A stretch of 64,000 bases of DNA from Desulfobacterales bacterium (GTDB lineage: Bacteria > Desulfobacterota > Desulfobacteria > Desulfobacterales > JAHEIW01). The position numbers were made by a program, and so were the translations under genes. The notes below the pieces were generated by a model, which was not told the DNA's origin, did not search any database, and saw nothing but the letters and a program-made list of their open reading frames with translations. The stretch lies in contig JASFNW010000005.1 of the NCBI GenBank assembly GCA_050116835.1, positions 4,037-68,036 of the forward strand, read 5' to 3'. Position 1 is the stretch's first letter. Every line of letters begins with the position of its first letter. Below, piece after piece: positions 913-30,821 of the stretch.

Positions 913-1392
913 ATGAAATCTGTGGTATCCATAGGGGATATGAGAATCGCCTGTAGCCCGGACCAGCTGGTCACCGATGCGCTGGGCAGTTGCTTGTGCC
1001 TGACGGTATACGACCCGATATCCGGTATTGGCGGCATTTTGCAGGCCATGTTGCCGTTTTCGAAAGTCAATCTGAAAAAGGCGGAAACCAATCCGTTTAT
1101 ATTCGTTGATACCGGGATTCCGGCACTCTTGGAGCAGCTGGCGGCCCAGGAAGATGTGTCGCCCAAACGCAACTGGCTGGTTAAAGCCATCGGCTGTGGC
1201 AATCCCATGGGCCGCAAAGAGGTATTTAAGATTGGCGAGCGAAATTACCGGGTACTGCGTGAGAAACTTTTAAACGAAGGGATTTGTTTGAAAGCCGAAG
1301 ATATCGGCGGCACAGTGAATCGCTCGGTTTGTCTGGATTTATCGATTGGGCAGACTATCGTTCGCAGCAACGGCAAAGAGAGGGTGTTATGA
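913..1392 (+). CDS. cheD: Chemoreceptor glutamine deamidase CheD
   Basis: 159 aa with TDALGSCLCLTVYDP...GGILQAMLP...IGERNYRVLREKL...IGGTVNRSVCLDL, the CheD signature including the catalytic Cys region. Confidence 0.85.
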   Translation: MKSVVSIGDMRIACSPDQLVTDALGSCLCLTVYDPISGIGGILQAMLPFSKVNLKKAETNPFIFVDTGIPALLEQLAAQEDVSPKRNWLVKAIGCGNPMGRKEVFKIGERNYRVLREKLLNEGICLKAEDIGGTVNRSVCLDLSIGQTIVRSNGKERVL

Positions 1393-2240
1393 GCAACACA
1401 AAAATCAACGAAATATTGGATAGGGTAAAATCATTTCCAACTATCCCCGGAGCGGGCACCCGAATGCTGAGCCTGCTTGAAGAACCCGACACCTCCGTTT
1501 CTGAAATCGAAGATATATTACGCTACGACCCGGGACTGACGGCCAACATTTTGAAATTGGCAAACTCCGCCTATTTCGGTCTGCCGTCCAAAATCGGCTC
1601 TCTAAAACAGGCCGTTATTTTACTGGGCCTAAAGCGCCTCATTCAGCTGGTGGTTGCTTCCTGTGTGAGTGCCGTTATGGACAAGTCGGTACCCGGCTAC
1701 AATTTACCTTCAGGCGATTTATGGCGGCATTCGATTGCAGTCTCCATTGCCTCCGAGGCGCTGGTAAAAGGGAAAAAAAGAATTTCTGCTGAAGATGTGT
1801 TTACCCCGGCGCTGTTGCACGATGTCGGCAAGTTGATTTTAGGGTCATTTGTCAGTGAGGAAATGGAAGCCATCCAGAGTATCGCGGCCAAGGATATTCC
1901 CTGGGTGGTGGCCGAAAACATGGTTCTGGGCACCGATCATGCTGAAATCGGAGCGCGCATTCTGGCCAACTGGAATTTGCCTGCCGGTGTCATCAATTCG
2001 GTTCGATGGCACCACGATCCGGATTCGCCGGATGCCAGCAACGTACAAATGGATGTGGTCTATCTGGCCAATATTTTATGCCAGACACCGGATACCAGCG
2101 GGCCGACAGCCGGTCACGCAGTTGAATTATCACCGGCGGTGATTGATCGACTGGGGATTCAGCTCGAGCAATTCGAGAGCATTTCAGAAAAGGTGGCTCA
2201 GTGGGTGGATGAGTTGTCAAATGCGTTGGCATTTAATTGA
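1389..2240 (+). CDS. HDOD domain protein (paralogue 1)
   Basis: The start overlaps the cheD stop as ATGA. It carries LRYDPGLTANILKLANSAYFG...AVILLGLKRL...LLHDVGKL...GTDHAEIGA, which matches HDOD. The ORF-track start at 1284 lies inside cheD and was rejected. Confidence 0.85.
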   Translation: MSNTKINEILDRVKSFPTIPGAGTRMLSLLEEPDTSVSEIEDILRYDPGLTANILKLANSAYFGLPSKIGSLKQAVILLGLKRLIQLVVASCVSAVMDKSVPGYNLPSGDLWRHSIAVSIASEALVKGKKRISAEDVFTPALLHDVGKLILGSFVSEEMEAIQSIAAKDIPWVVAENMVLGTDHAEIGARILANWNLPAGVINSVRWHHDPDSPDASNVQMDVVYLANILCQTPDTSGPTAGHAVELSPAVIDRLGIQLEQFESISEKVAQWVDELSNALAFN

Positions 2241-2352
2241 ACACCGCCGCAGCACGCGCCCGCGCAGCGCAGAGGTGCGTTAAAGATGAGAGGGACAGGG
2301 TAGAGTGGCGAAAACGGTTAAGCACCAATTTTCAGTGTTGAGGGCAAAATCC

Positions 2353-3195
2353 ATGGAGGTCCAAAAAATCGCACCGGCCATACAGTCGTTTCCCGGCATG
2401 CCGGGCACAGCCGTCAAGTTGCTGGGACTGATCGATGATCCGTCCATGCGGGTATCTCAGATCGAGGAAATATTGCGCCACGACTCCGGTTTGACGGCCA
2501 ACGTGCTCAGACTTGCCAATTCGGCCTATTTCGGGATTCCATCTAAAATCGGCTCTATCAGACAGGCGGTGATATTGTTGGGTCTCAAGCGCTTGATTCA
2601 AATGGTTATTGCCGCCTGCGTCAGTGCCATCATGGATAAACCGGTTCCGGGATATGATCTGCCGCCGGGCGAATTATGGCGCCATTCGATTGCCGTCTCG
2701 GTCGCAGCGGAGGCGCTGGTGAAAGAGTTGAAAATCGAAGCTTCCGAGGAAATATTTACTGCCGCTTTGCTGCATGATGTCGGCAAACTGGTTTTGGGCG
2801 AGTTTGTCAAAGATGAATTCAATAAAATAGAAGCTGCCGTTTCGGAGGGTGTGAGCTTTGAGATGGCGGAAACCATGGTGTTGGGCATCAATCACGCCGA
2901 TGTGGGCGCCAAAATATTAGCCCGTTGGTCGCTACCGCCGGAAATTATCAATGCGGTTCAATGGCACCATGATCCCGAAGCACTTGAGCACACCAGTGTC
3001 ATGTTAGATATCGTGCATGTGACCAATGTGATGAGTATGCTGATCGGCATCGGCATCGGCCGGGATGGTTTGCAACATCAGCCGAGCGTTGCGGTCAGCG
3101 AGCGGCTTGGGCTCGAGCCCCGTGTGCTGGAAAAGGTGGCCAGTCAGACCACGCAATGGGTTAACGAGTTGACCGGTATCCTGGATTCCGGTTGA
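2353..3195 (+). CDS. HDOD domain protein (paralogue 2, tandem duplicate)
   Basis: The core is roughly 80% identical by eye to the preceding gene (GLTANVLRLANSAYFGIPSKIGSIRQAVILLGLKRLIQ...). ATG 2353 has a GAGGG 8 nt upstream and aligns with the paralogue's N-terminus. GTG 2305 is an alternative start. Confidence 0.8.
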   Translation: MEVQKIAPAIQSFPGMPGTAVKLLGLIDDPSMRVSQIEEILRHDSGLTANVLRLANSAYFGIPSKIGSIRQAVILLGLKRLIQMVIAACVSAIMDKPVPGYDLPPGELWRHSIAVSVAAEALVKELKIEASEEIFTAALLHDVGKLVLGEFVKDEFNKIEAAVSEGVSFEMAETMVLGINHADVGAKILARWSLPPEIINAVQWHHDPEALEHTSVMLDIVHVTNVMSMLIGIGIGRDGLQHQPSVAVSERLGLEPRVLEKVASQTTQWVNELTGILDSG

Positions 3196-5725: not shown

Positions 5726-6196
5726 ATGAAAAAAACATTGATCACCATAAGCTGTATCGCCGTGCTCGTATTCATCATTACCCATCCGCTTTCCGGCCTC
5801 AACAGTGAAAGTATCGTGCGTTTAAAGCAAGCCGGCATCAGCGACAGCACCATTCAGCTGATGGTCAGGGAAAAGGTCGTTGAAACCGCATCTTTTAGCG
5901 TTCAGGAAATTATTGACATGAAAAAGGCAGGGCTCAGCGAGAAAACCATCCAGATGGTTATCCAGGAAGGCTCTTTTCTCAAGGATACCGCCCCGATCAT
6001 TTATGGCAAAGACGTACGCTCGATAGAGTTTACGACAGCCGATGATATTATTGCCCTCAAAAATGCCGGTGTCAGCAATGATGTTATCCAGGCCATCATC
6101 AAGGTGGTGGGAGATAGTACCGATACCGAGCGACGGGATGCTTACCGACTGCTGGATGATATGGAGATCCGCGTCGATTTGCGGGACGGGGATTAA
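5726..6196 (+). CDS. Secreted or membrane-anchored protein with three internal repeats
   Basis: It has a hydrophobic N-terminal signal or anchor (ITISCIAVLVFIITHPL). A unit recurs three times: LKQAGISDSTIQLMV, MKKAGLSEKTIQMVI and LKNAGVSNDVIQAII. The start is 4 nt after the flgL stop. Confidence 0.5.
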   Translation: MKKTLITISCIAVLVFIITHPLSGLNSESIVRLKQAGISDSTIQLMVREKVVETASFSVQEIIDMKKAGLSEKTIQMVIQEGSFLKDTAPIIYGKDVRSIEFTTADDIIALKNAGVSNDVIQAIIKVVGDSTDTERRDAYRLLDDMEIRVDLRDGD

Positions 6197-6608: not shown

Positions 6609-7541
6609 TCAATTTTCCCGATCAACTTCTGCTATCGTCGTTGCCCGCGCGCGCAAATGAGCTCTCAAATCATGGATAACCAGGTCTGCTGCCTGCTTCA
6701 GCAGTGACGGGAAGATCCGTGCATAGCCACTCGAACGTAATCGGGTTTGAATTTGTTCGCGGTAATTTCTTTTGCCTTCCTCGATGGTGGCCCGCAGCAT
6801 ATGATAAAGATCCATCGGTGCGATATCTTTGGGCAGGGAAAACTGACCGACAATGGTGGTAGCCTGGCGGGCAATATGCTGTAAATAATTATCGTTATTC
6901 AGCGGCACGACGGTATCGCGGATGTCATGAAATTTTACGGCCTCACAAATTTGGGTGGGAACATTAAACCGCTGCAACACGAGTGCACCGATTTCGGCAT
7001 GACTGATCCCCAAAATCATTTTTTCCGCCTCGCATGAGGGCAGATCCTGTGATTTTTTCAAGGCCACAATTTGCTCGTGTTCATCTTTGAAGTATACTGC
7101 AATAACCAGTTTGCCGATATTTTGCAGCGTGGCCACCGTGAACAGATCATCCAGCTGGTTAAAATTCAGTATTTCCCCCAAAACCTTGGCAACCGCTGCA
7201 CAGACCTGAGCCTGTTTGAGGAATTTTTCGAAATTAAATTGTTTGAGGCGCTTGGTAAAATGATCCATTAAGATGGAGGTGACTAAAATATCTTTCATTT
7301 TACCGTAGCCCAGTAACTGAACCGCATAGGAAATCGAGCGCACTTCACGGCTGCCGTAATAGGCTGAGTTGGCCATGTTTAAAAAGCGGGCCGCAAGGCT
7401 TGGCGACAGCTTTGCAACAATTTGATCAAAATTGCTGGCCGGATTATTGAGCAACGTAATGATCTCGACCACTTCCGTGTCGACCAACGGCAGTTTGTTG
7501 ATTTTATTTTGAATTCTTTCAATTGTTTCCTCTGTTGTCAT
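6609..7541 (-). CDS. HDOD domain protein (paralogue 3)
   Basis: It carries VEIITLLNNPASNFDQIVAKLSPSLAARFLNMANSAYYG...AVQLLGYGKMKDI...TLQNIGKL...GISHAEIGA. A GGGGAGGA RBS lies before the ATG. Confidence 0.8.
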   Translation of the reverse strand: MTTEETIERIQNKINKLPLVDTEVVEIITLLNNPASNFDQIVAKLSPSLAARFLNMANSAYYGSREVRSISYAVQLLGYGKMKDILVTSILMDHFTKRLKQFNFEKFLKQAQVCAAVAKVLGEILNFNQLDDLFTVATLQNIGKLVIAVYFKDEHEQIVALKKSQDLPSCEAEKMILGISHAEIGALVLQRFNVPTQICEAVKFHDIRDTVVPLNNDNYLQHIARQATTIVGQFSLPKDIAPMDLYHMLRATIEEGKRNYREQIQTRLRSSGYARIFPSLLKQAADLVIHDLRAHLRARATTIAEVDREN

Positions 7542-7676: not shown

Positions 7677-7692
7677 AGCAATAGGCATGCCA
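7677..7692 (-). promoter_or_regulatory. Sigma-54 promoter (P2) upstream of the HDOD gene 6609-7541
   Basis: The minus strand reads TGGCATGCCTATTGCT, which equals TGGCAY-N5-TTGCW with correct GG-N10-GC spacing. It lies about 135 nt upstream of the ATG at 7541. Confidence 0.6.
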
Positions 7693-7857: not shown

Positions 7858-7859
7858 CA

Positions 7860-7947
7860 AGAGAAAAACCCTGTTAGGGGGGGGTGCCTAACAGGGTTCG
7901 TCGGAGGTGGGAATGAAGGAAAGGAGGAAACTTCATTCCATATTTGC
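7860..7947 (-). ncRNA. Candidate sigma-54-dependent small RNA (~85 nt)
   Basis: It is bracketed by the sigma-54 promoter at 7958-7973 and an intrinsic terminator. Hairpin 1 is GGAAUGAAG-UUUCCUCCUUUC-CUUCAUUCC, followed by single-stranded CACCUCCGACGAA. The terminator is CCCUGUUAGG-CACCCCCC-CCUAACAGGG followed by UUUUUCUCUU. Confidence 0.45.
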
Positions 7948-7957
7948 CATAAAACAA

Positions 7958-7973
7958 TGCAACTATTGTGCCA
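7958..7973 (-). promoter_or_regulatory. Sigma-54 promoter (P1)
   Basis: The minus strand reads TGGCACAATAGTTGCA, which equals the consensus TGGCAC-N5-TTGCA. No ORF follows it; only the hairpin and terminator do. Confidence 0.65.
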
Positions 7974-8515
7974 TTTAGATATAAATAAAGATCGATTTGA
8001 AAATTGACTGCTGACAAAACCGGTATTTACTTTATTAACATGTATTTTCAGTGACTTAAAATACAATCGAGTTTCTTTGATCGTTCCCAACGGATTTTGC
8101 AGATATTTGATCCGTTGTGGCACACTGCACAATTTAGGTTCAAATTTTTGCCTACCCGGCAAATATTTGCATCCTTTTGAAACTGCCATCACCGCAGGAT
8201 CCGGATCCGTCTATTCGCTATCTAACTAAATTAATTTAGAATACCGACAGTAATCGGCTGATTTCCGATACTGGAGTAAAACATTAGGCGCATCATTTTT
8301 TATCAAATTCATCAAAATTGGCACAATTTTGTTCATTTGCAAATTGCGAACAATATTTTTGCATTTTGCGAATTTTAGTCGTCCACTGATCGATTCAGCA
8401 GCGGATTTTCGAAACTAAAGCGGGCATACGAGCACTTTCAACCCACCAATTGTGACGCTAAGTGGATTTAAACATCAAGTTTTGGGCCAAAATTCCGATA
8501 CTATTATAGATTCTT

Positions 8516-9328
8516 ATGTTCAGGGGGTTCATTTGCGATATGGAAGAAGGCATTAAAACCTTATCGGTTTCTCAGGCAGCGGCCCTTTGCGATGTTGGAC
8601 GCACAACCGTTGGATACTGGATTCGTTCCAAAAAGTTGGCTGCCACCCGCCGGGGCAAAAAATATGAAATACCGGTTCAGAATCTGCTTTATTATTTAAA
8701 AGCCAACGGCCAAGAAATACCCGCGCAGCTTGAGAACGAGAATTTAAGCGGGCCGGTTTTTCAATCCTTGCAAAATTGTTGGCAATACCATCGGGACCAT
8801 TCCCATGGCTTGAATTGCCCGCAATGTATCGTCTTCAAAAATAAGCTTCCGGTATGCTTTAGCGCACGCAACGATGGCAAACTCAACTGTACGGGGGGAT
8901 GCCAAAAATGCCGCTATTACCGGGAAGCGTATTATCCGCGGGTTCAGTTCATCTATCAATTCGAAATACCGGCGGCGATTATTAAAGATTTGAATTTCTG
9001 GGCTGGAAACCCGGCGATGGCAGATCTTTGTCAAGTCGGTCAAAAGCATTTGGTGGGGATGGGCATTGAAAAAATCATCCACCCGCGATCCCTGGAACAG
9101 GTCATTTCGTGTGCAAAACGTAAGGCTCTGGGGGATGCGGGGACCCAATCCGAGTGCCGAATCTACATAAAAAACCATCAGGCCGATGGGTTGAAAATAA
9201 AATGCTCGGTCTTTGTCTTAAAACAGCCGCCCGGCGCCTTTTTGATAACGGCCGCACCTGACCTCAGTGATCTTCCGCATTTTCAATATCAGGCATTAAA
9301 CAAATCGGGTGAAGAGTTGGCCCAATGA
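8516..9328 (+). CDS. Excisionase/MerR-type HTH protein with a 7-Cys block and a PAS-like C-terminus
   Basis: The HTH reads LSVSQAAALCDVGRTTVGYWIRSKKL. The Cys block reads CWQYHRDHSHGLNCPQCIVFKNKLPVCFSARNDGKLNCTGGCQKC. The C-terminal roughly 110 aa is PAS-like. The stop overlaps the next gene as ATGA. ATG 8540 is an alternative start. Confidence 0.6.
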   Translation: MFRGFICDMEEGIKTLSVSQAAALCDVGRTTVGYWIRSKKLAATRRGKKYEIPVQNLLYYLKANGQEIPAQLENENLSGPVFQSLQNCWQYHRDHSHGLNCPQCIVFKNKLPVCFSARNDGKLNCTGGCQKCRYYREAYYPRVQFIYQFEIPAAIIKDLNFWAGNPAMADLCQVGQKHLVGMGIEKIIHPRSLEQVISCAKRKALGDAGTQSECRIYIKNHQADGLKIKCSVFVLKQPPGAFLITAAPDLSDLPHFQYQALNKSGEELAQ

Positions 9329-11228: not shown

Positions 11229-12137
11229 ATGCATGCATGTTCCAGCGATCAGTCGTCGTATTTAATACGAATTGAGGCCTATGTTGCCCGGATGCCGAGT
11301 CTATCGACAACCGCAACAAAGGTGCTCGCAACATGTAACGATCCACAAGCTTCACCCAATGATCTGAATCGCTTAATTTCGCTGGATCCGGTGCTCGCCG
11401 GCCAGGTCCTGCGGCTGATCAACTCCGCTTATTATTCACTCAGCCACCCGATTTCTTCGCTAACCCGTGCCATCATCATGCTGGGGGTAAACACCGTTAA
11501 AAATCTGGTGTTAAGCTTTGCGATTCTGCAGCAGTTACCGATGGCAAGATCATTCGGGACCCTATCGCCGGTTATATTTTGGGAACACTCCGTTGCTGTC
11601 GGTGTAATTGCCAAATGGCTGGCCGAGTTTAAAGGGGTGCACCTGATCGATCAGGAGGACTATTTTGTGGCGGGGCTTTTGCACGATTTGGGTAAAATAC
11701 CGCTCAACCACCAGTTTGCCGATGAAACCCGGCAGGCGATGGCGTTGGCCAGACAACATCGCTGGTCAGCGGTTCATGCTGAACGCATCATCTTTGGCTT
11801 CGATCATAGTGTGGTCGGCGGTCTGATTGCCCGCAAATGGCGTTTGAGCCCGGCCTTCGTTGATGTGCTCGCCTATCACCATCGACCTGCAGAATCTCCG
11901 GACAACAGCCCTCAGCTGGTATTTATGGTCGCATTGGCCGATCTTTATGCGTGGATGCTGGAAAACGATTCGGATGAAGACACATTGGCCCATGACAAAT
12001 TTGCAGCATCCGTTATGGCGCGGGTCGGCCTGGATGCGTCTACCTTGGCACAAGTACGGGATACCGTGCTTGCCGAAATCGATCGCGCGAAAATATTTTT
12101 AGAAATCTCTCAAAGGAAGCCCGGTCATGATCGTTAA
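11229..12137 (+). CDS. HDOD domain protein (paralogue 4)
   Basis: It carries LISLDPVLAGQVLRLINSAYYSLSHPISSLTRAIIMLGVNTVKNL...GLLHDLGKI...GFDHSVVGG. ATG 11292 is an alternative start. Confidence 0.8.
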   Translation: MHACSSDQSSYLIRIEAYVARMPSLSTTATKVLATCNDPQASPNDLNRLISLDPVLAGQVLRLINSAYYSLSHPISSLTRAIIMLGVNTVKNLVLSFAILQQLPMARSFGTLSPVIFWEHSVAVGVIAKWLAEFKGVHLIDQEDYFVAGLLHDLGKIPLNHQFADETRQAMALARQHRWSAVHAERIIFGFDHSVVGGLIARKWRLSPAFVDVLAYHHRPAESPDNSPQLVFMVALADLYAWMLENDSDEDTLAHDKFAASVMARVGLDASTLAQVRDTVLAEIDRAKIFLEISQRKPGHDR

Positions 12138-13899: not shown

Positions 13900-14349
13900 T
13901 TAAAGTTTTGCGACACTGTCGGCATATGAAGGATCCTGCAACAGTTTTTTGGCAAAGTCCAGGTATTTGCCGGTGATGGCCCGGACTGCCAGCTGCAGTG
14001 CATAAGGTTTTATCGGTTTTTCCAGCAGATAATTCACCCGTGATGCCAAACACATATTGACGACATCGTCACTGGCATTTCCGCTAATGATAATTGCATC
14101 CTCATGGGCGCTCGGATATTTTTTTTCAATCGCATCCAGAAAGGAGAACCCACTCAGACCGCCCAGAAATACATCGATGATAAAAATGGCGACGCCAACT
14201 TCACGCTGCAGGCAATGATCGATGGCTTCGTCGGCGTTTGTGAAGGCAATGATATTGCCCCAGTTGTAGAAGGTTTCGACCAGTTCGCTGATGACATCAC
14301 AAATGCCTTTGTCATCATCGATGATAATGACATCTAAACCATCCGACAT
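13900..14349 (-). CDS. Single-domain response regulator receiver
   Basis: It carries VIIIDDD...FIIDVFLGGLSG...EKPIK. A GGAGGA RBS lies 6 nt before ATG 14349. Confidence 0.85.
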   Translation of the reverse strand: MSDGLDVIIIDDDKGICDVISELVETFYNWGNIIAFTNADEAIDHCLQREVGVAIFIIDVFLGGLSGFSFLDAIEKKYPSAHEDAIIISGNASDDVVNMCLASRVNYLLEKPIKPYALQLAVRAITGKYLDFAKKLLQDPSYADSVAKL

Positions 14350-14424
14350 GTTTCTTCCTCCCATCGGTACTCAAATTTTTGCAGCTTGACCTGGCTAGGG
14401 GCTAGGGCATACTCCTGCCGGGTT

Positions 14425-15825
14425 TTACATTTCACCATCCGCCCGGCCTTCCAGTTTGTATTTTTCAATTTTGCGGTACACAGTTGAGACGTTTACACCC
14501 AGTATTTTGGCTGCCTTGGGGCGGTTTCCGTCCGTAATACTCAACACTTTTTCAATGTGCCGTTTTTCGAGTTCTTCCAGCGTTAACAATTCCACGTTTT
14601 TGCGTCGCTCCGGGCCCTCATAGGGCAGCAGGTTTAGCGTTGCTTCCAGGGTCAGAGTGTCTGATTTTTCCAGCAACACGGCGGCTGCAATGATGTTCTC
14701 CAATTCGCGCACATTGCCTGGGAAAGAATACTGCATCAGCCGTTGCTCCAGATCCGGTGATAGGGTACGGATATATTTGTCGTTTGCGCGGGCATGGATT
14801 TTGAGAAAATGCCGGGCAATCGGCAGGATATCTTTTTTTCTTTCCCTAATTGGCGGCACGTTTATGTTGTACATATTGATGCGGTAATAAAGGTCCGCCC
14901 GAAATTTGCCTTTAAGGATTTCCTCGTTGATATCTTTATTGGTGGCGGCAATGATGCGCACATCCACATTGCGAATTTCGGTGCTGCCCAGGCGATAGAG
15001 TTCACGCTCCTCGATAACGCGCAATAGTTTGCCCTGAAGTGACGGATCCAATTCAGTGATTTCATCTAAAAACAGGGTGCCGCCGTTGGCAGCCTCGAAA
15101 AACCCGATTTTTTCATTCCCCGCATCTGTATAGGCGCCTTTGGCATGCCCGAAAAATTCGTCTTCAAATATCGTTTTGCTGAAGGAGGCCATGTTAACAG
15201 CGTAAAATGGCGCATTGGAACGGTTGCTCAATTGATGAATAACGCGCGCCAGCATTTCTTTGCCGGTGCCGGATTCGCCGTTGATTATAACGCTGTAATC
15301 GGTTCCAGCAACGGCTTCCACCTGATGAAATACCAGGGCCATAGCTTCATCTTCGGCGACGATACCCGCAAATGCAGTCGGGTTCTTAAGATTTGAAAAT
15401 ACCTTCTTGCTGCCGAACTGCGCCAAATCATGCTGCACGGTTATCTTTTCAAGCGTGCGGTTGACAAGCGCGATCAGTTTATCGCTGTTAAGCGGTTTGA
15501 CCAAATAGTCTGAAGCGCCCAGGCTCATGGCTTGCACGGCAGATGCAACGTCATCAATGGCACTGACAATCACACAGTCGATATCGGGAGCTTCTGCTTT
15601 GATGGTCTGAAGCACTTCCATTCCCGACAACTGCGGCATCATGAGATCCAGTAAAATCAATTGAAAATCATGTTTGCGAACCAGATCCATGACCCGCTGG
15701 CTGTCGGAAACCAAAGCGGGCTCCGGCAGATCCGAAGAGACCAGCGTCGCTTTAATACTCAATAACAGACCTTCATCATCATCTACGACCAGGACCGGGC
15801 TTTTTTTCTGCGGAATTGATTCCAT
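14425..15825 (-). CDS. Sigma-54-dependent response regulator (REC-AAA+-Fis HTH, NtrC family)
   Basis: The REC domain reads VLVVDDDEG...LLDLMMP. The Walker A motif is GESGTGKE. The GAFTGA-type loop reads FGHAKGAYTDA. The C-terminal HTH reads AAKILGVNVSTVYRKI. Confidence 0.9.
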   Translation of the reverse strand: MESIPQKKSPVLVVDDDEGLLLSIKATLVSSDLPEPALVSDSQRVMDLVRKHDFQLILLDLMMPQLSGMEVLQTIKAEAPDIDCVIVSAIDDVASAVQAMSLGASDYLVKPLNSDKLIALVNRTLEKITVQHDLAQFGSKKVFSNLKNPTAFAGIVAEDEAMALVFHQVEAVAGTDYSVIINGESGTGKEMLARVIHQLSNRSNAPFYAVNMASFSKTIFEDEFFGHAKGAYTDAGNEKIGFFEAANGGTLFLDEITELDPSLQGKLLRVIEERELYRLGSTEIRNVDVRIIAATNKDINEEILKGKFRADLYYRINMYNINVPPIRERKKDILPIARHFLKIHARANDKYIRTLSPDLEQRLMQYSFPGNVRELENIIAAAVLLEKSDTLTLEATLNLLPYEGPERRKNVELLTLEELEKRHIEKVLSITDGNRPKAAKILGVNVSTVYRKIEKYKLEGRADGEM

Positions 15826-16203
15826 AAATTTATAAAATAATGATATTTTTCGTGTTCACCGGCAATCGTGCGCGAGGCTTGAATGGTGCCGACATTCAGG
15901 TGTGCGCGGTCATGATATTTTTTGAAATGCACGCATCGGAGAAATGAAACAATACGAGACACTTCCGATACCATTTATGTTAAATTGAAATGTGAAAACA
16001 GTCAATGTTTTTCTATTGAAGTGAAACGTAACTTATTAATATTACCCTATTTACTGTTTATTTGCAAATTGCAACAGCCGTAGCTGCGTTCTTCGTTATC
16101 GGTTATTGGTTTTGGCGGTCTTTGATAATTCAATCAGGCGCCCACTTAATAAAATTGAATCACCAGCTAAGCATCGATCCAATTAACAAACGACCCTCAC
16201 TGG

Positions 16204-30699: not shown

Positions 30700-30821
30700 T
30701 GCGCCACGCGCTGCTTGTCTTTATCAATATTTTGATCCATTTGAGGTTGTCATCCTTTAGTGCGAGGGCATGCCGACCTTGCCGCCATCAACCCCCACCG
30801 CCAACAAAAAAGGAGGAAAGC

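Follow-up and report, generated by a model that had tools for sequence, protein, structure and literature searches.

In this study, we focus on a small RNA (sRNA) locus carried by the minus strand of a 64,000-nucleotide stretch of DNA from a Desulfobacterales bacterium (assembly GCA_050116835.1, contig JASFNW010000005.1, positions 4,037 to 68,036), which will be referred to as the window. The locus is a conserved, structured and non-coding unit that extends from a promoter to a terminator and exposes invariant pyrimidine motifs. We consider it likely that this unit encodes, as a gene in its own right, a non-coding sRNA of about 85 nt, whose expression would depend on sigma-54 and on an activator, and which would act in trans through seeds that resemble the anti-Shine-Dalgarno (anti-SD) sequence. 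A preliminary description, made from the sequence of the window alone, had already proposed a stand-alone promoter-to-terminator unit of this size, and the comparative data bear this out: the unit is kept as one block in all 12 loci that were retrieved without reference to the RNA, as well as in metagenomic copies. In our reading the locus is thus a gene, and a chance match is excluded by this conservation from promoter to terminator rather than by the promoter match alone.

A compact unit from promoter to terminator

All the elements of the unit are read on the minus strand. The sigma-54 (-24/-12) promoter, P1 (TGGCACAATAGTTGCA, 7958-7973), has the form TGGCAC-N5-TTGCA, and it is followed by the predicted sRNA of about 85 nt (7863-7947), to which our covariance model, R1, gives a score of 107 bits (E = 2e-25). 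The sRNA is composed, in this order, of a 5' leader (GCAAAUAU), hairpin 1, a single-stranded linker, a terminator hairpin and a U-tract. Hairpin 1 (7910-7939) is made of a perfect 9-bp stem (GGAAUGAAG/CUUCAUUCC) and of a 12-nt loop (UUUCCUCCUUUC, 7930-7919), which is the first anti-SD-like seed. The linker (CACCUCCGACGAA, 7897-7909) contains the second one, CACCUCC. The intrinsic terminator (7859-7896) consists of a 10-bp G+C-rich stem (CCCUGUUAGG/CCUAACAGGG, 7896-7869) followed by the U-tract (UUUUUCUCUU, 7868-7859), and its C-rich loop (CACCCCCC, 7886-7879) is a possible third C-rich seed. The promoter, hairpin 1, the second CCUCC and the terminator with its C-rich loop had all been placed correctly on the minus strand by the preliminary description. 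However, the hairpin had been put about 25 nt past the promoter, and the actual distance after TTGCA is 18 nt, in an A/T-rich sequence. From the usual geometry of sigma-54 promoters, with the C of the GC element set at -12, we infer a transcription start near 7947 and a leader of about 8 nt.

When the 91 nt of the region were folded with ViennaRNA, exactly two hairpins were obtained, with a minimum free energy of -32.5 kcal/mol, against -15.8 ± 2.7 kcal/mol for shuffled sequences (z = -6.2; none of 200 shuffles was as stable). A terminator scan returned the 3' hairpin as its top match in the region. The RNA thus folded presents three pyrimidine-rich single-stranded patches, namely the loop UUUCCUCCUUUC and the linker CACCUCC, both unpaired in the predicted fold, and the C-run of the terminator loop.

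Conservation of the sRNA

The relatives of the locus were fetched in a way that is blind to the RNA, either through the protein encoded by the downstream HDOD gene (8 loci with enough upstream DNA) or through homologues of a sigma-54 activator encoded further upstream (4 long contigs). The sRNA was present in 12 of these 12 loci. In the 8 HDOD-anchored loci, it was found together with both P1 and the promoter of the HDOD gene, while the identity of the neighbouring proteins ranged from 58 to 95%; one of these loci belongs to a complete chromosome in which the HDOD protein is only 58% identical. In the 4 activator-anchored loci, the sRNA scored 91-98 bits with the covariance model and the promoter was found each time. 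The alignment of the HDOD-anchored loci reaches about 100% identity from AAATGGCAC through the U-tract, and the sequence on either side can barely be aligned. Neither of the two seeds, loop UUUCCUCCUUUC and linker motif CACCUCC, shows any change among the 12 loci.

The sRNA is also abundant in sediment metagenomes, where a pattern scan gave at least 120 matches, about 95 of which, among the matches listed, are true copies. This pattern fixed the two CCUCC motifs and 19 of the 39 core bases, so that more divergent relatives are invisible to it. Taking together the metagenomic and the earlier loci, at least 97 copies share a core of 39 nt (GGAAUGAAGUUUCCUCCUUUCCUUCAUUCCCACCUCCGA), and for the 20 core positions left free by the pattern, only three variants were seen among the matches listed, all of which preserve pairing. 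The core stays unchanged between lineages that differ by 40-50% in their proteins.

The pairing itself is maintained. In an alignment of 46 sequences, all of the 874 base-pair cells form standard pairs, and five pairs show compensatory double changes, four of them in the terminator (of 10 stem pairs) and one in hairpin 1. These measures were reached by none of 500 shuffles, and no slid register comes close. The anti-SD-like loops that had been pointed out from the sequence are present, on helices that are kept with compensatory changes. Variation is distributed unequally along the RNA: hairpin 1 is invariant in the homologues except for two G-U variants and one compensatory change from A-U to G-C (locus L134), the four bases that follow CCGA in the linker are the sole variable spot in the RNA body, and the terminator loop holds a run of 5-9 C in every copy, on a stem of 10-13 bp.

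Two kinds of unusual copies were met. A metagenomic contig of 1.6 kb (L059) bears two copies of the sRNA in divergent orientation, at 1162-1245 (-) and 1418-1501 (+), each with its own sigma-54 promoter, which differ in linker and loop; this shows that the sRNA gene was duplicated in at least one lineage. In L053 (1446-1540, minus strand), and identically in L109, the invariant core is preceded by a TTGACA-like hexamer instead of a sigma-54 promoter, and the terminator is a different, longer one that retains the C-run in its loop.

Promoter P1 and its upstream sites

P1 is the only perfect match of its type in the window and one of two good intergenic sigma-54-type sites in the 64 kb. Taken alone, it would not be significant, since at least one exact match was found in 13 of 100 shuffled windows. 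Its conservation is more informative: TGGCA[CT]-N5-TTGC[ATC] occurs in 91 of the 93 uncut copies among the matches listed, always with 15-19 nt between its end and hairpin 1. Across copies, the flanks and the 5-nt spacer are free to vary, and this pattern of variation is the one expected from selection on the contacts with sigma-54.

Two kinds of activator site may feed P1. The first is an inverted repeat, GTC[AG]-N6-TGAC, whose strict form, among the matches listed, is carried by 62 of 79 distinct upstream regions between -167 and -189, when shuffles gave 0.4 regions on average and never more than 3. Most of the other upstream regions hold a version with one or two mismatches at the same place. 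The window carries such a degenerate copy (GGCAAAAATTTGAA, 8139-8152, minus strand, -179 from P1), aligned by eye, which is a candidate upstream activating sequence (UAS). A motif of the same form, yGTCA-N6-TGACr, is predicted for the FlrA/FleQ-like activator DVU2894 of Desulfovibrio, and GTCA-N6-TGGC is found in the FlrA-binding region of Vibrio cholerae (PMC4641369). We take this likeness to the DVU2894 and FlrA sites as a lead and not as an assignment.

The second kind of site is a pair of palindromes lying 22 bp apart on the minus strand (8337-8372), TTCGCAAAATGCAA (8372-8359) and TTCGCAATTTGCAA (8350-8337), which may constitute a second candidate UAS. They resemble the LuxO consensus TTGCAW3TGCAA (PMC11443567): the form in the window is TTCGCA-W3-TGCAA, and some relatives have the perfect consensus. 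The pair is found in every locus of the window subtype that has enough upstream sequence, and it is absent from the other subtypes. In the window, it is located about 380-400 nt upstream of P1 and 144-180 nt upstream of a divergent HTH_17 gene. Its position is different in L013 (-195/-173) and L058 (-176/-154), two loci that have neither the HTH_17 gene nor the GTCR repeat. A single promoter served by two activators is not without precedent, as this was shown for qrr1 of Vibrio fischeri (bioRxiv 10.1101/2022.04.27.489697).

The candidate activator

The preliminary description had also mentioned a sigma-54 activator encoded at 14425-15825 (minus strand). Pfam searches and the protein sequence agree with this, and they identify an NtrC-family response regulator with a REC domain that has its acceptor Asp, a sigma-54 AAA+ domain with the GAYTDA motif, and an HTH_8 domain. 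The link to the sRNA that had been envisaged is strengthened by synteny: in 13 of the 13 loci that reach far enough, an orthologue with the orientation of the sRNA gene lies 2.4-6.3 kb upstream of it. The activator is 74-86% identical between loci, against 33-70% for the intervening genes, which vary in content, and its DNA-binding recognition helix is invariant across all sRNA subtypes. We thus regard it as the leading candidate for the control of P1.

Searches with NCBIfam models and PDB sequences could not tell apart the LuxO, NtrC, FlgR and PEP-CTERM subtypes for this protein, with scores far below the equivalog cut-offs. A protein search returned only proteins from metagenomes or metagenome-assembled genomes named "Desulfobacterales bacterium" or "Deltaproteobacteria bacterium", and no named or cultured host, and the activator protein of the window itself is absent from the records. 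The proteins encoded around the sRNA point to an uncultured member of the Desulfobacterales. Autoregulation was considered and rejected: a perfect palindrome (TTGCAAATTGCAA, 16062-16074) is located 237 nt upstream of the activator gene, where 14 other loci have not kept it, and its occurrence does not exceed what chance provides.

The activator gene is adjoined by a co-conserved gene for a CheY-like single-domain response regulator (13900-14364, minus strand), the true start of which, ATGTCG, falls 15 nt into the open reading frame (ORF) as listed. A strong GGAGG always precedes this gene, and the activator gene, whose conserved start is ATGGAATCNATTCC, has no recognisable Shine-Dalgarno (SD) sequence in 16 of 16 orthologues. 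The strong GGAGG ahead of its start makes the mRNA of the CheY-like regulator a possible feedback target of the sRNA.

Proposed mode of action

As is generally known, the anti-SD tail of the 16S rRNA contains CACCUCCUUUC, and the loop UUUCCUCCUUUC and the linker CACCUCC appear to reproduce its two halves. This is the reason why we propose pairing in trans with ribosome-binding sites. According to this proposal, the sigma-54 RNA polymerase would bind P1 at TGGCAC-N5-TTGCA and would require that an ATP-dependent activator occupy the GTCR-N6-TGAC repeat, some 180 nt upstream, with the possible additional use, in the lineage of the window, of the pair of TTGCAW3TGCAA-like palindromes. The activator would most likely be the syntenic NtrC-type regulator at 14425-15825, and the sRNA would be made only when this regulator is phosphorylated. 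Transcription would then run from near 7947 to the intrinsic terminator near 7860, and the sRNA would pair with ribosome-binding sites that are rich in purines, GAAAGGAGGAAA or GGAGGUG for example, either blocking the initiation of translation or triggering the decay of the mRNA. The targets probably belong to motility or c-di-GMP (cyclic di-GMP) signalling, given the constant HDOD, GGDEF, PilZ, CheW and CheY-like neighbours of the sRNA, and often flgK-flgL.

Several points weigh against this proposal. No specific target and no extended conserved complementarity were found in the window and in about 0.8 Mb of related DNA. We computed duplex energies for every start region of the window and for gene families clustered from related loci, and the strong scorers (FlgL, the CheY-like regulator gene and the gene near 30820) are generic strong SDs, with nothing beyond the SD; the FlgL start regions, in particular, offer only a generic AGGAGG. 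Fuzzy matches to the complements of loop and linker in the window gave nothing specific either, and a blastn-short target search added nothing further. What we say of the transcript, of where it starts and stops, and of its need for rpoN and the activator is inferred from the DNA. The assignment of the activator is ambiguous, since the site that it would bind could be either type of upstream repeat: L013 and L058 have only the LuxO-like sites and the other subtypes only GTCR-N6-TGAC, yet the DNA-binding helix is the same. The repeat copy of the window has two mismatches, and two copies of the sRNA (L053 and L109) lack a sigma-54 promoter. Finally, the stems are conserved in sequence as well as in pairing, which a pure seed-in-loop model does not require, and this may point to a protein partner or to a pairing that opens hairpin 1.

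Alternative explanations

This last point leads to a different view of the RNA, in which hairpin 1 and the motifs resembling the 16S tail are recognised by a protein, or in which the RNA is a general competitor for SDs. The partner could be a factor binding the 16S 3' end, an RNA chaperone or a translational regulator. Indeed, 7 of the 9 pairs of hairpin 1 show no variation between lineages with about 50-60% protein identity, when base-pairing sRNAs usually allow their stems to co-vary; CCUCCUUUC and CACCUCC jointly reproduce the anti-SD tail in its generally known form; and a specific mRNA target was not found locally. However, the RNA contains a single GGA, unlike the many GGA sites of CsrB-type sponges, it is short and single-copy with a classic layout of seeds and terminator, and the candidate partners that are co-conserved with it are limited to signalling proteins. 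We hold such a protein-binding or decoy role to be unlikely. A bolder form of it, which seems to us more doubtful still, is that the sRNA is a signal-induced mimic of the 16S 3' tail, in which CCUCCUUUC and CACCUCC would rebuild the anti-SD and the invariant hairpin would serve as a handle for a protein. When the chemosensory or c-di-GMP-linked sigma-54 activator fires, the sRNA would compete with ribosomes for strong SDs across the whole transcriptome, or else it would titrate away a 16S-tail-binding factor. If true, this would be a global and tunable brake on SD-dependent initiation.

It had been envisaged from the start that the region could act only as a leader, with read-through from P1 past the terminator controlling the HDOD gene, and this gene does lie on the same strand 320 nt downstream in the window and in close relatives. 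The comparison of loci goes the other way. Among the matches listed, 48 loci have at least 1.7 kb of downstream sequence; the HDOD gene follows the sRNA in 20 of them, but 28 have no co-oriented gene after the sRNA, and in 18 of these 28 the next conserved gene converges on it. Moreover, a conserved sigma-54 promoter of its own serves the HDOD gene, 270 nt past the terminator, the 270 nt in between are poorly conserved, and the terminator is a strong one (10-13 bp and a U-tract). This second promoter, P2 (TGGCATGCCTATTGCT, 7677-7692, minus strand), stands between the sRNA terminator and the HDOD gene, about 150 nt ahead of the start codon, and is kept in 11 of the 11 HDOD loci examined; as a predicted promoter, it shows the HDOD gene to be a separate transcription unit. 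A general leader function is thus ruled out by the loci that lack a co-oriented gene and by the presence of P2 in between, and a cis-acting leader or attenuator is very improbable.

A small protein or a dual-function RNA has an even slimmer chance of explaining the locus. The preliminary description had stated that no ORF fits between promoter and terminator, which does not hold: the ATG at 7936 opens a frame of 20 codons (MKFPPFLHSHLRRTLLGTPP and a stop) that ends at 7874 on the minus strand, and its first 14 codons fall inside the invariant core. However, this frame has no upstream SD and its ATG is buried in a stem. There is no third-position variation in the core, and the one variable codon switches from R to L, P or S. 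As the C-run varies in length between 7 and 9, both the frame and the stop are displaced, and L134 has a base deletion within the frame. As for a DNA-level element, a repeat or chance, for which only the 13% of shuffled windows with an exact sigma-54 match can be invoked, it can be set aside almost entirely, given that about 100 loci among the matches listed keep the promoter, the two helices and the U-tract as a set with fixed spacing, that compensatory changes maintain RNA pairing, and that there is one copy per locus at a syntenic site with no second one in the 64 kb (R1 with filters off gave other matches of at most 19 bits, all terminator-like), which is not the behaviour of a dispersed repeat.

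Relation to known regulatory RNAs

The preliminary description had not recognised this RNA, and it does indeed fall outside the known families. A search of Rfam 15 gave no family match, whether with the whole window at gathering thresholds or with the region at E up to 10, where weak matches to snoR14 and 6C are noise. For the Qrr model (RF00378), neither the gathering threshold nor a limit of E = 10 gave a match, and the 6C RNA model (RF01066) reached 18.9 bits for a gathering threshold of 47 (E = 9.2), on the terminator only, so the sRNA is not a member. Among the papers searched, no match was found to 14-16-nt stretches of the sRNA, and keyword searches gave analogues only.

By its seeds, the sRNA recalls RoxS/RsaE of the Firmicutes and 6C of the Actinobacteria, in which C-rich motifs in single-stranded loops or linkers pair with G-rich ribosome-binding sites. 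These RNAs are, however, not sigma-54 dependent, and their motifs are CCCC where CCUCC is found here.

By its control, it is closer to sRNAs that depend on sigma-54 and an activator and are encoded near this activator, a design that is established for LuxO-Qrr (PMC11443567) and Nla19-Pxr (PMC5568312). With the Qrr RNAs of the Vibrionaceae, it shares a sigma-54 promoter, an NtrC-type regulator encoded nearby, upstream palindromes, a size of about 100 nt and a terminator, and the two activators of one qrr promoter (bioRxiv 10.1101/2022.04.27.489697) match the two repeat types seen here. It differs from Qrr by its two hairpins instead of four, by its anti-SD-like seeds and by its phylum; the activator gene is 2.4-6.3 kb away, in contrast to the adjacent and divergent luxO, and its product resembles LuxO no more than it does other proteins of the NtrC family. 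Pxr, in Myxococcus and relatives, also belongs to the former Deltaproteobacteria and has a sigma-54 promoter and an NtrC-like regulator encoded beside it, conserved 5' hairpins, a more variable terminator and occasional paralogues (PMC5568312), as in L059. But Pxr has 108 nt and three stem-loops, shows no detectable sequence similarity to our sRNA and governs fruiting-body development; the targets of Pxr, too, have yet to be identified (PMC11928866).

Two other cases deserve comparison. CJnc230/FlmE of Campylobacter jejuni is RpoN-dependent, lies in a flagellar neighbourhood and represses the translation of motility regulators (PMC11187230), and many of our sRNA loci adjoin flgK-flgL. However, CJnc230 is processed from the flgE mRNA, without an activator-dependent promoter of its own, it has no sequence similarity to our sRNA, and flagellar genes are not adjacent in 4 of the 4 activator-anchored loci. 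In Desulfovibrio, sigma-54-dependent non-coding RNAs (ncRNAs) of unknown function have been predicted (PMC4641369, PMC3333781). Those of Desulfovibrio vulgaris, near DVU0653, DVU0679, DVU2357 and DVU3282, offer the same combination of activator, palindromes, sigma-54 promoter and ncRNA in sulfate reducers, but their activator sites are TGTCCGC-N4-GCGGACA, CGTGCG-N4-CGCACG and TNACGA-N4-TCGTNA, the comparison being one of activator sites.

On the strength of these comparisons, we regard the sRNA as a new family, whose control would be of the LuxO-Qrr or Nla19-Pxr kind and whose seeds would be of the RoxS/RsaE or 6C type, and which is a member of none of them. It would be an independent further example of the activator-sigma-54-sRNA design known from Qrr in Vibrio and Pxr in Myxococcus. 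To our knowledge, post-transcriptional regulation is almost unknown in the Desulfobacterales, which are major sulfate reducers of marine sediments. The locus provides a testable circuit, with a response-regulator activator, upstream sites, a sigma-54 promoter and an sRNA among HDOD, GGDEF, PilZ, CheW and flagellar genes, and hence a possible entry point to how phosphorelays are coupled with decisions on motility or c-di-GMP in uncultured Desulfobacterales. The covariance model R1 can be used to annotate the family.

Genomic neighbourhood

Clustering of the ORFs around all the copies revealed a syntenic order: activator, CheY-like response regulator, (PilZ), metallo-beta-lactamase-fold protein, HDOD, a 150-aa protein, (GGDEF), (CheW), HTH_17 protein and sRNA. 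The predicted theme of the constant partners is c-di-GMP, chemotaxis and motility signalling. The far side of the sRNA depends on the lineage and is occupied by the HDOD gene with its own sigma-54 promoter, by the end of a convergent flgK-flgL operon, or by unrelated genes. The HDOD-domain gene of the window (6609-7541, minus strand, assigned by Pfam) is thus an optional downstream neighbour that is present in some lineages. Upstream of its promoter P2, at -125 to -165, a perfect palindrome, GTTGCCAAGATTTTGGCAAC (7858-7839), is accompanied by TGTCAAGGCTTTGTCA (7834-7819), both on the minus strand; as both have the form GNCA-N6-TGNC, they may be the activator sites of P2 itself.

The HTH_17 gene (8516-9328, plus strand) is divergent from the sRNA, and in its product the HTH_17 domain (excisionase/MerR-like) precedes a segment rich in Cys, CPQC...C...C...CQKC. 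No other gene is found so often right beside the sRNA (35 of 59 loci among the matches listed), and the HTH_17 protein was considered as a required regulator and rejected, as it is absent from at least 13 loci that keep the sRNA. A 156-aa protein (5726-6196, plus strand), which had no family match above threshold, has an N-terminus resembling a signal peptide and three K(Q/K/N)AG(I/L/V)S..(T/V)IQ repeats, and its gene comes after flgL in most loci. The surroundings of the sRNA are unusually dense in HDOD, c-di-GMP and motility genes. Four HDOD paralogues are found within 12 kb (1284-2240, 2305-3195, 6609-7541 and 11229-12137), and they are interleaved with flgN, cheD, flgK, flgL, a GGDEF gene, a PilZ gene and two response regulators.

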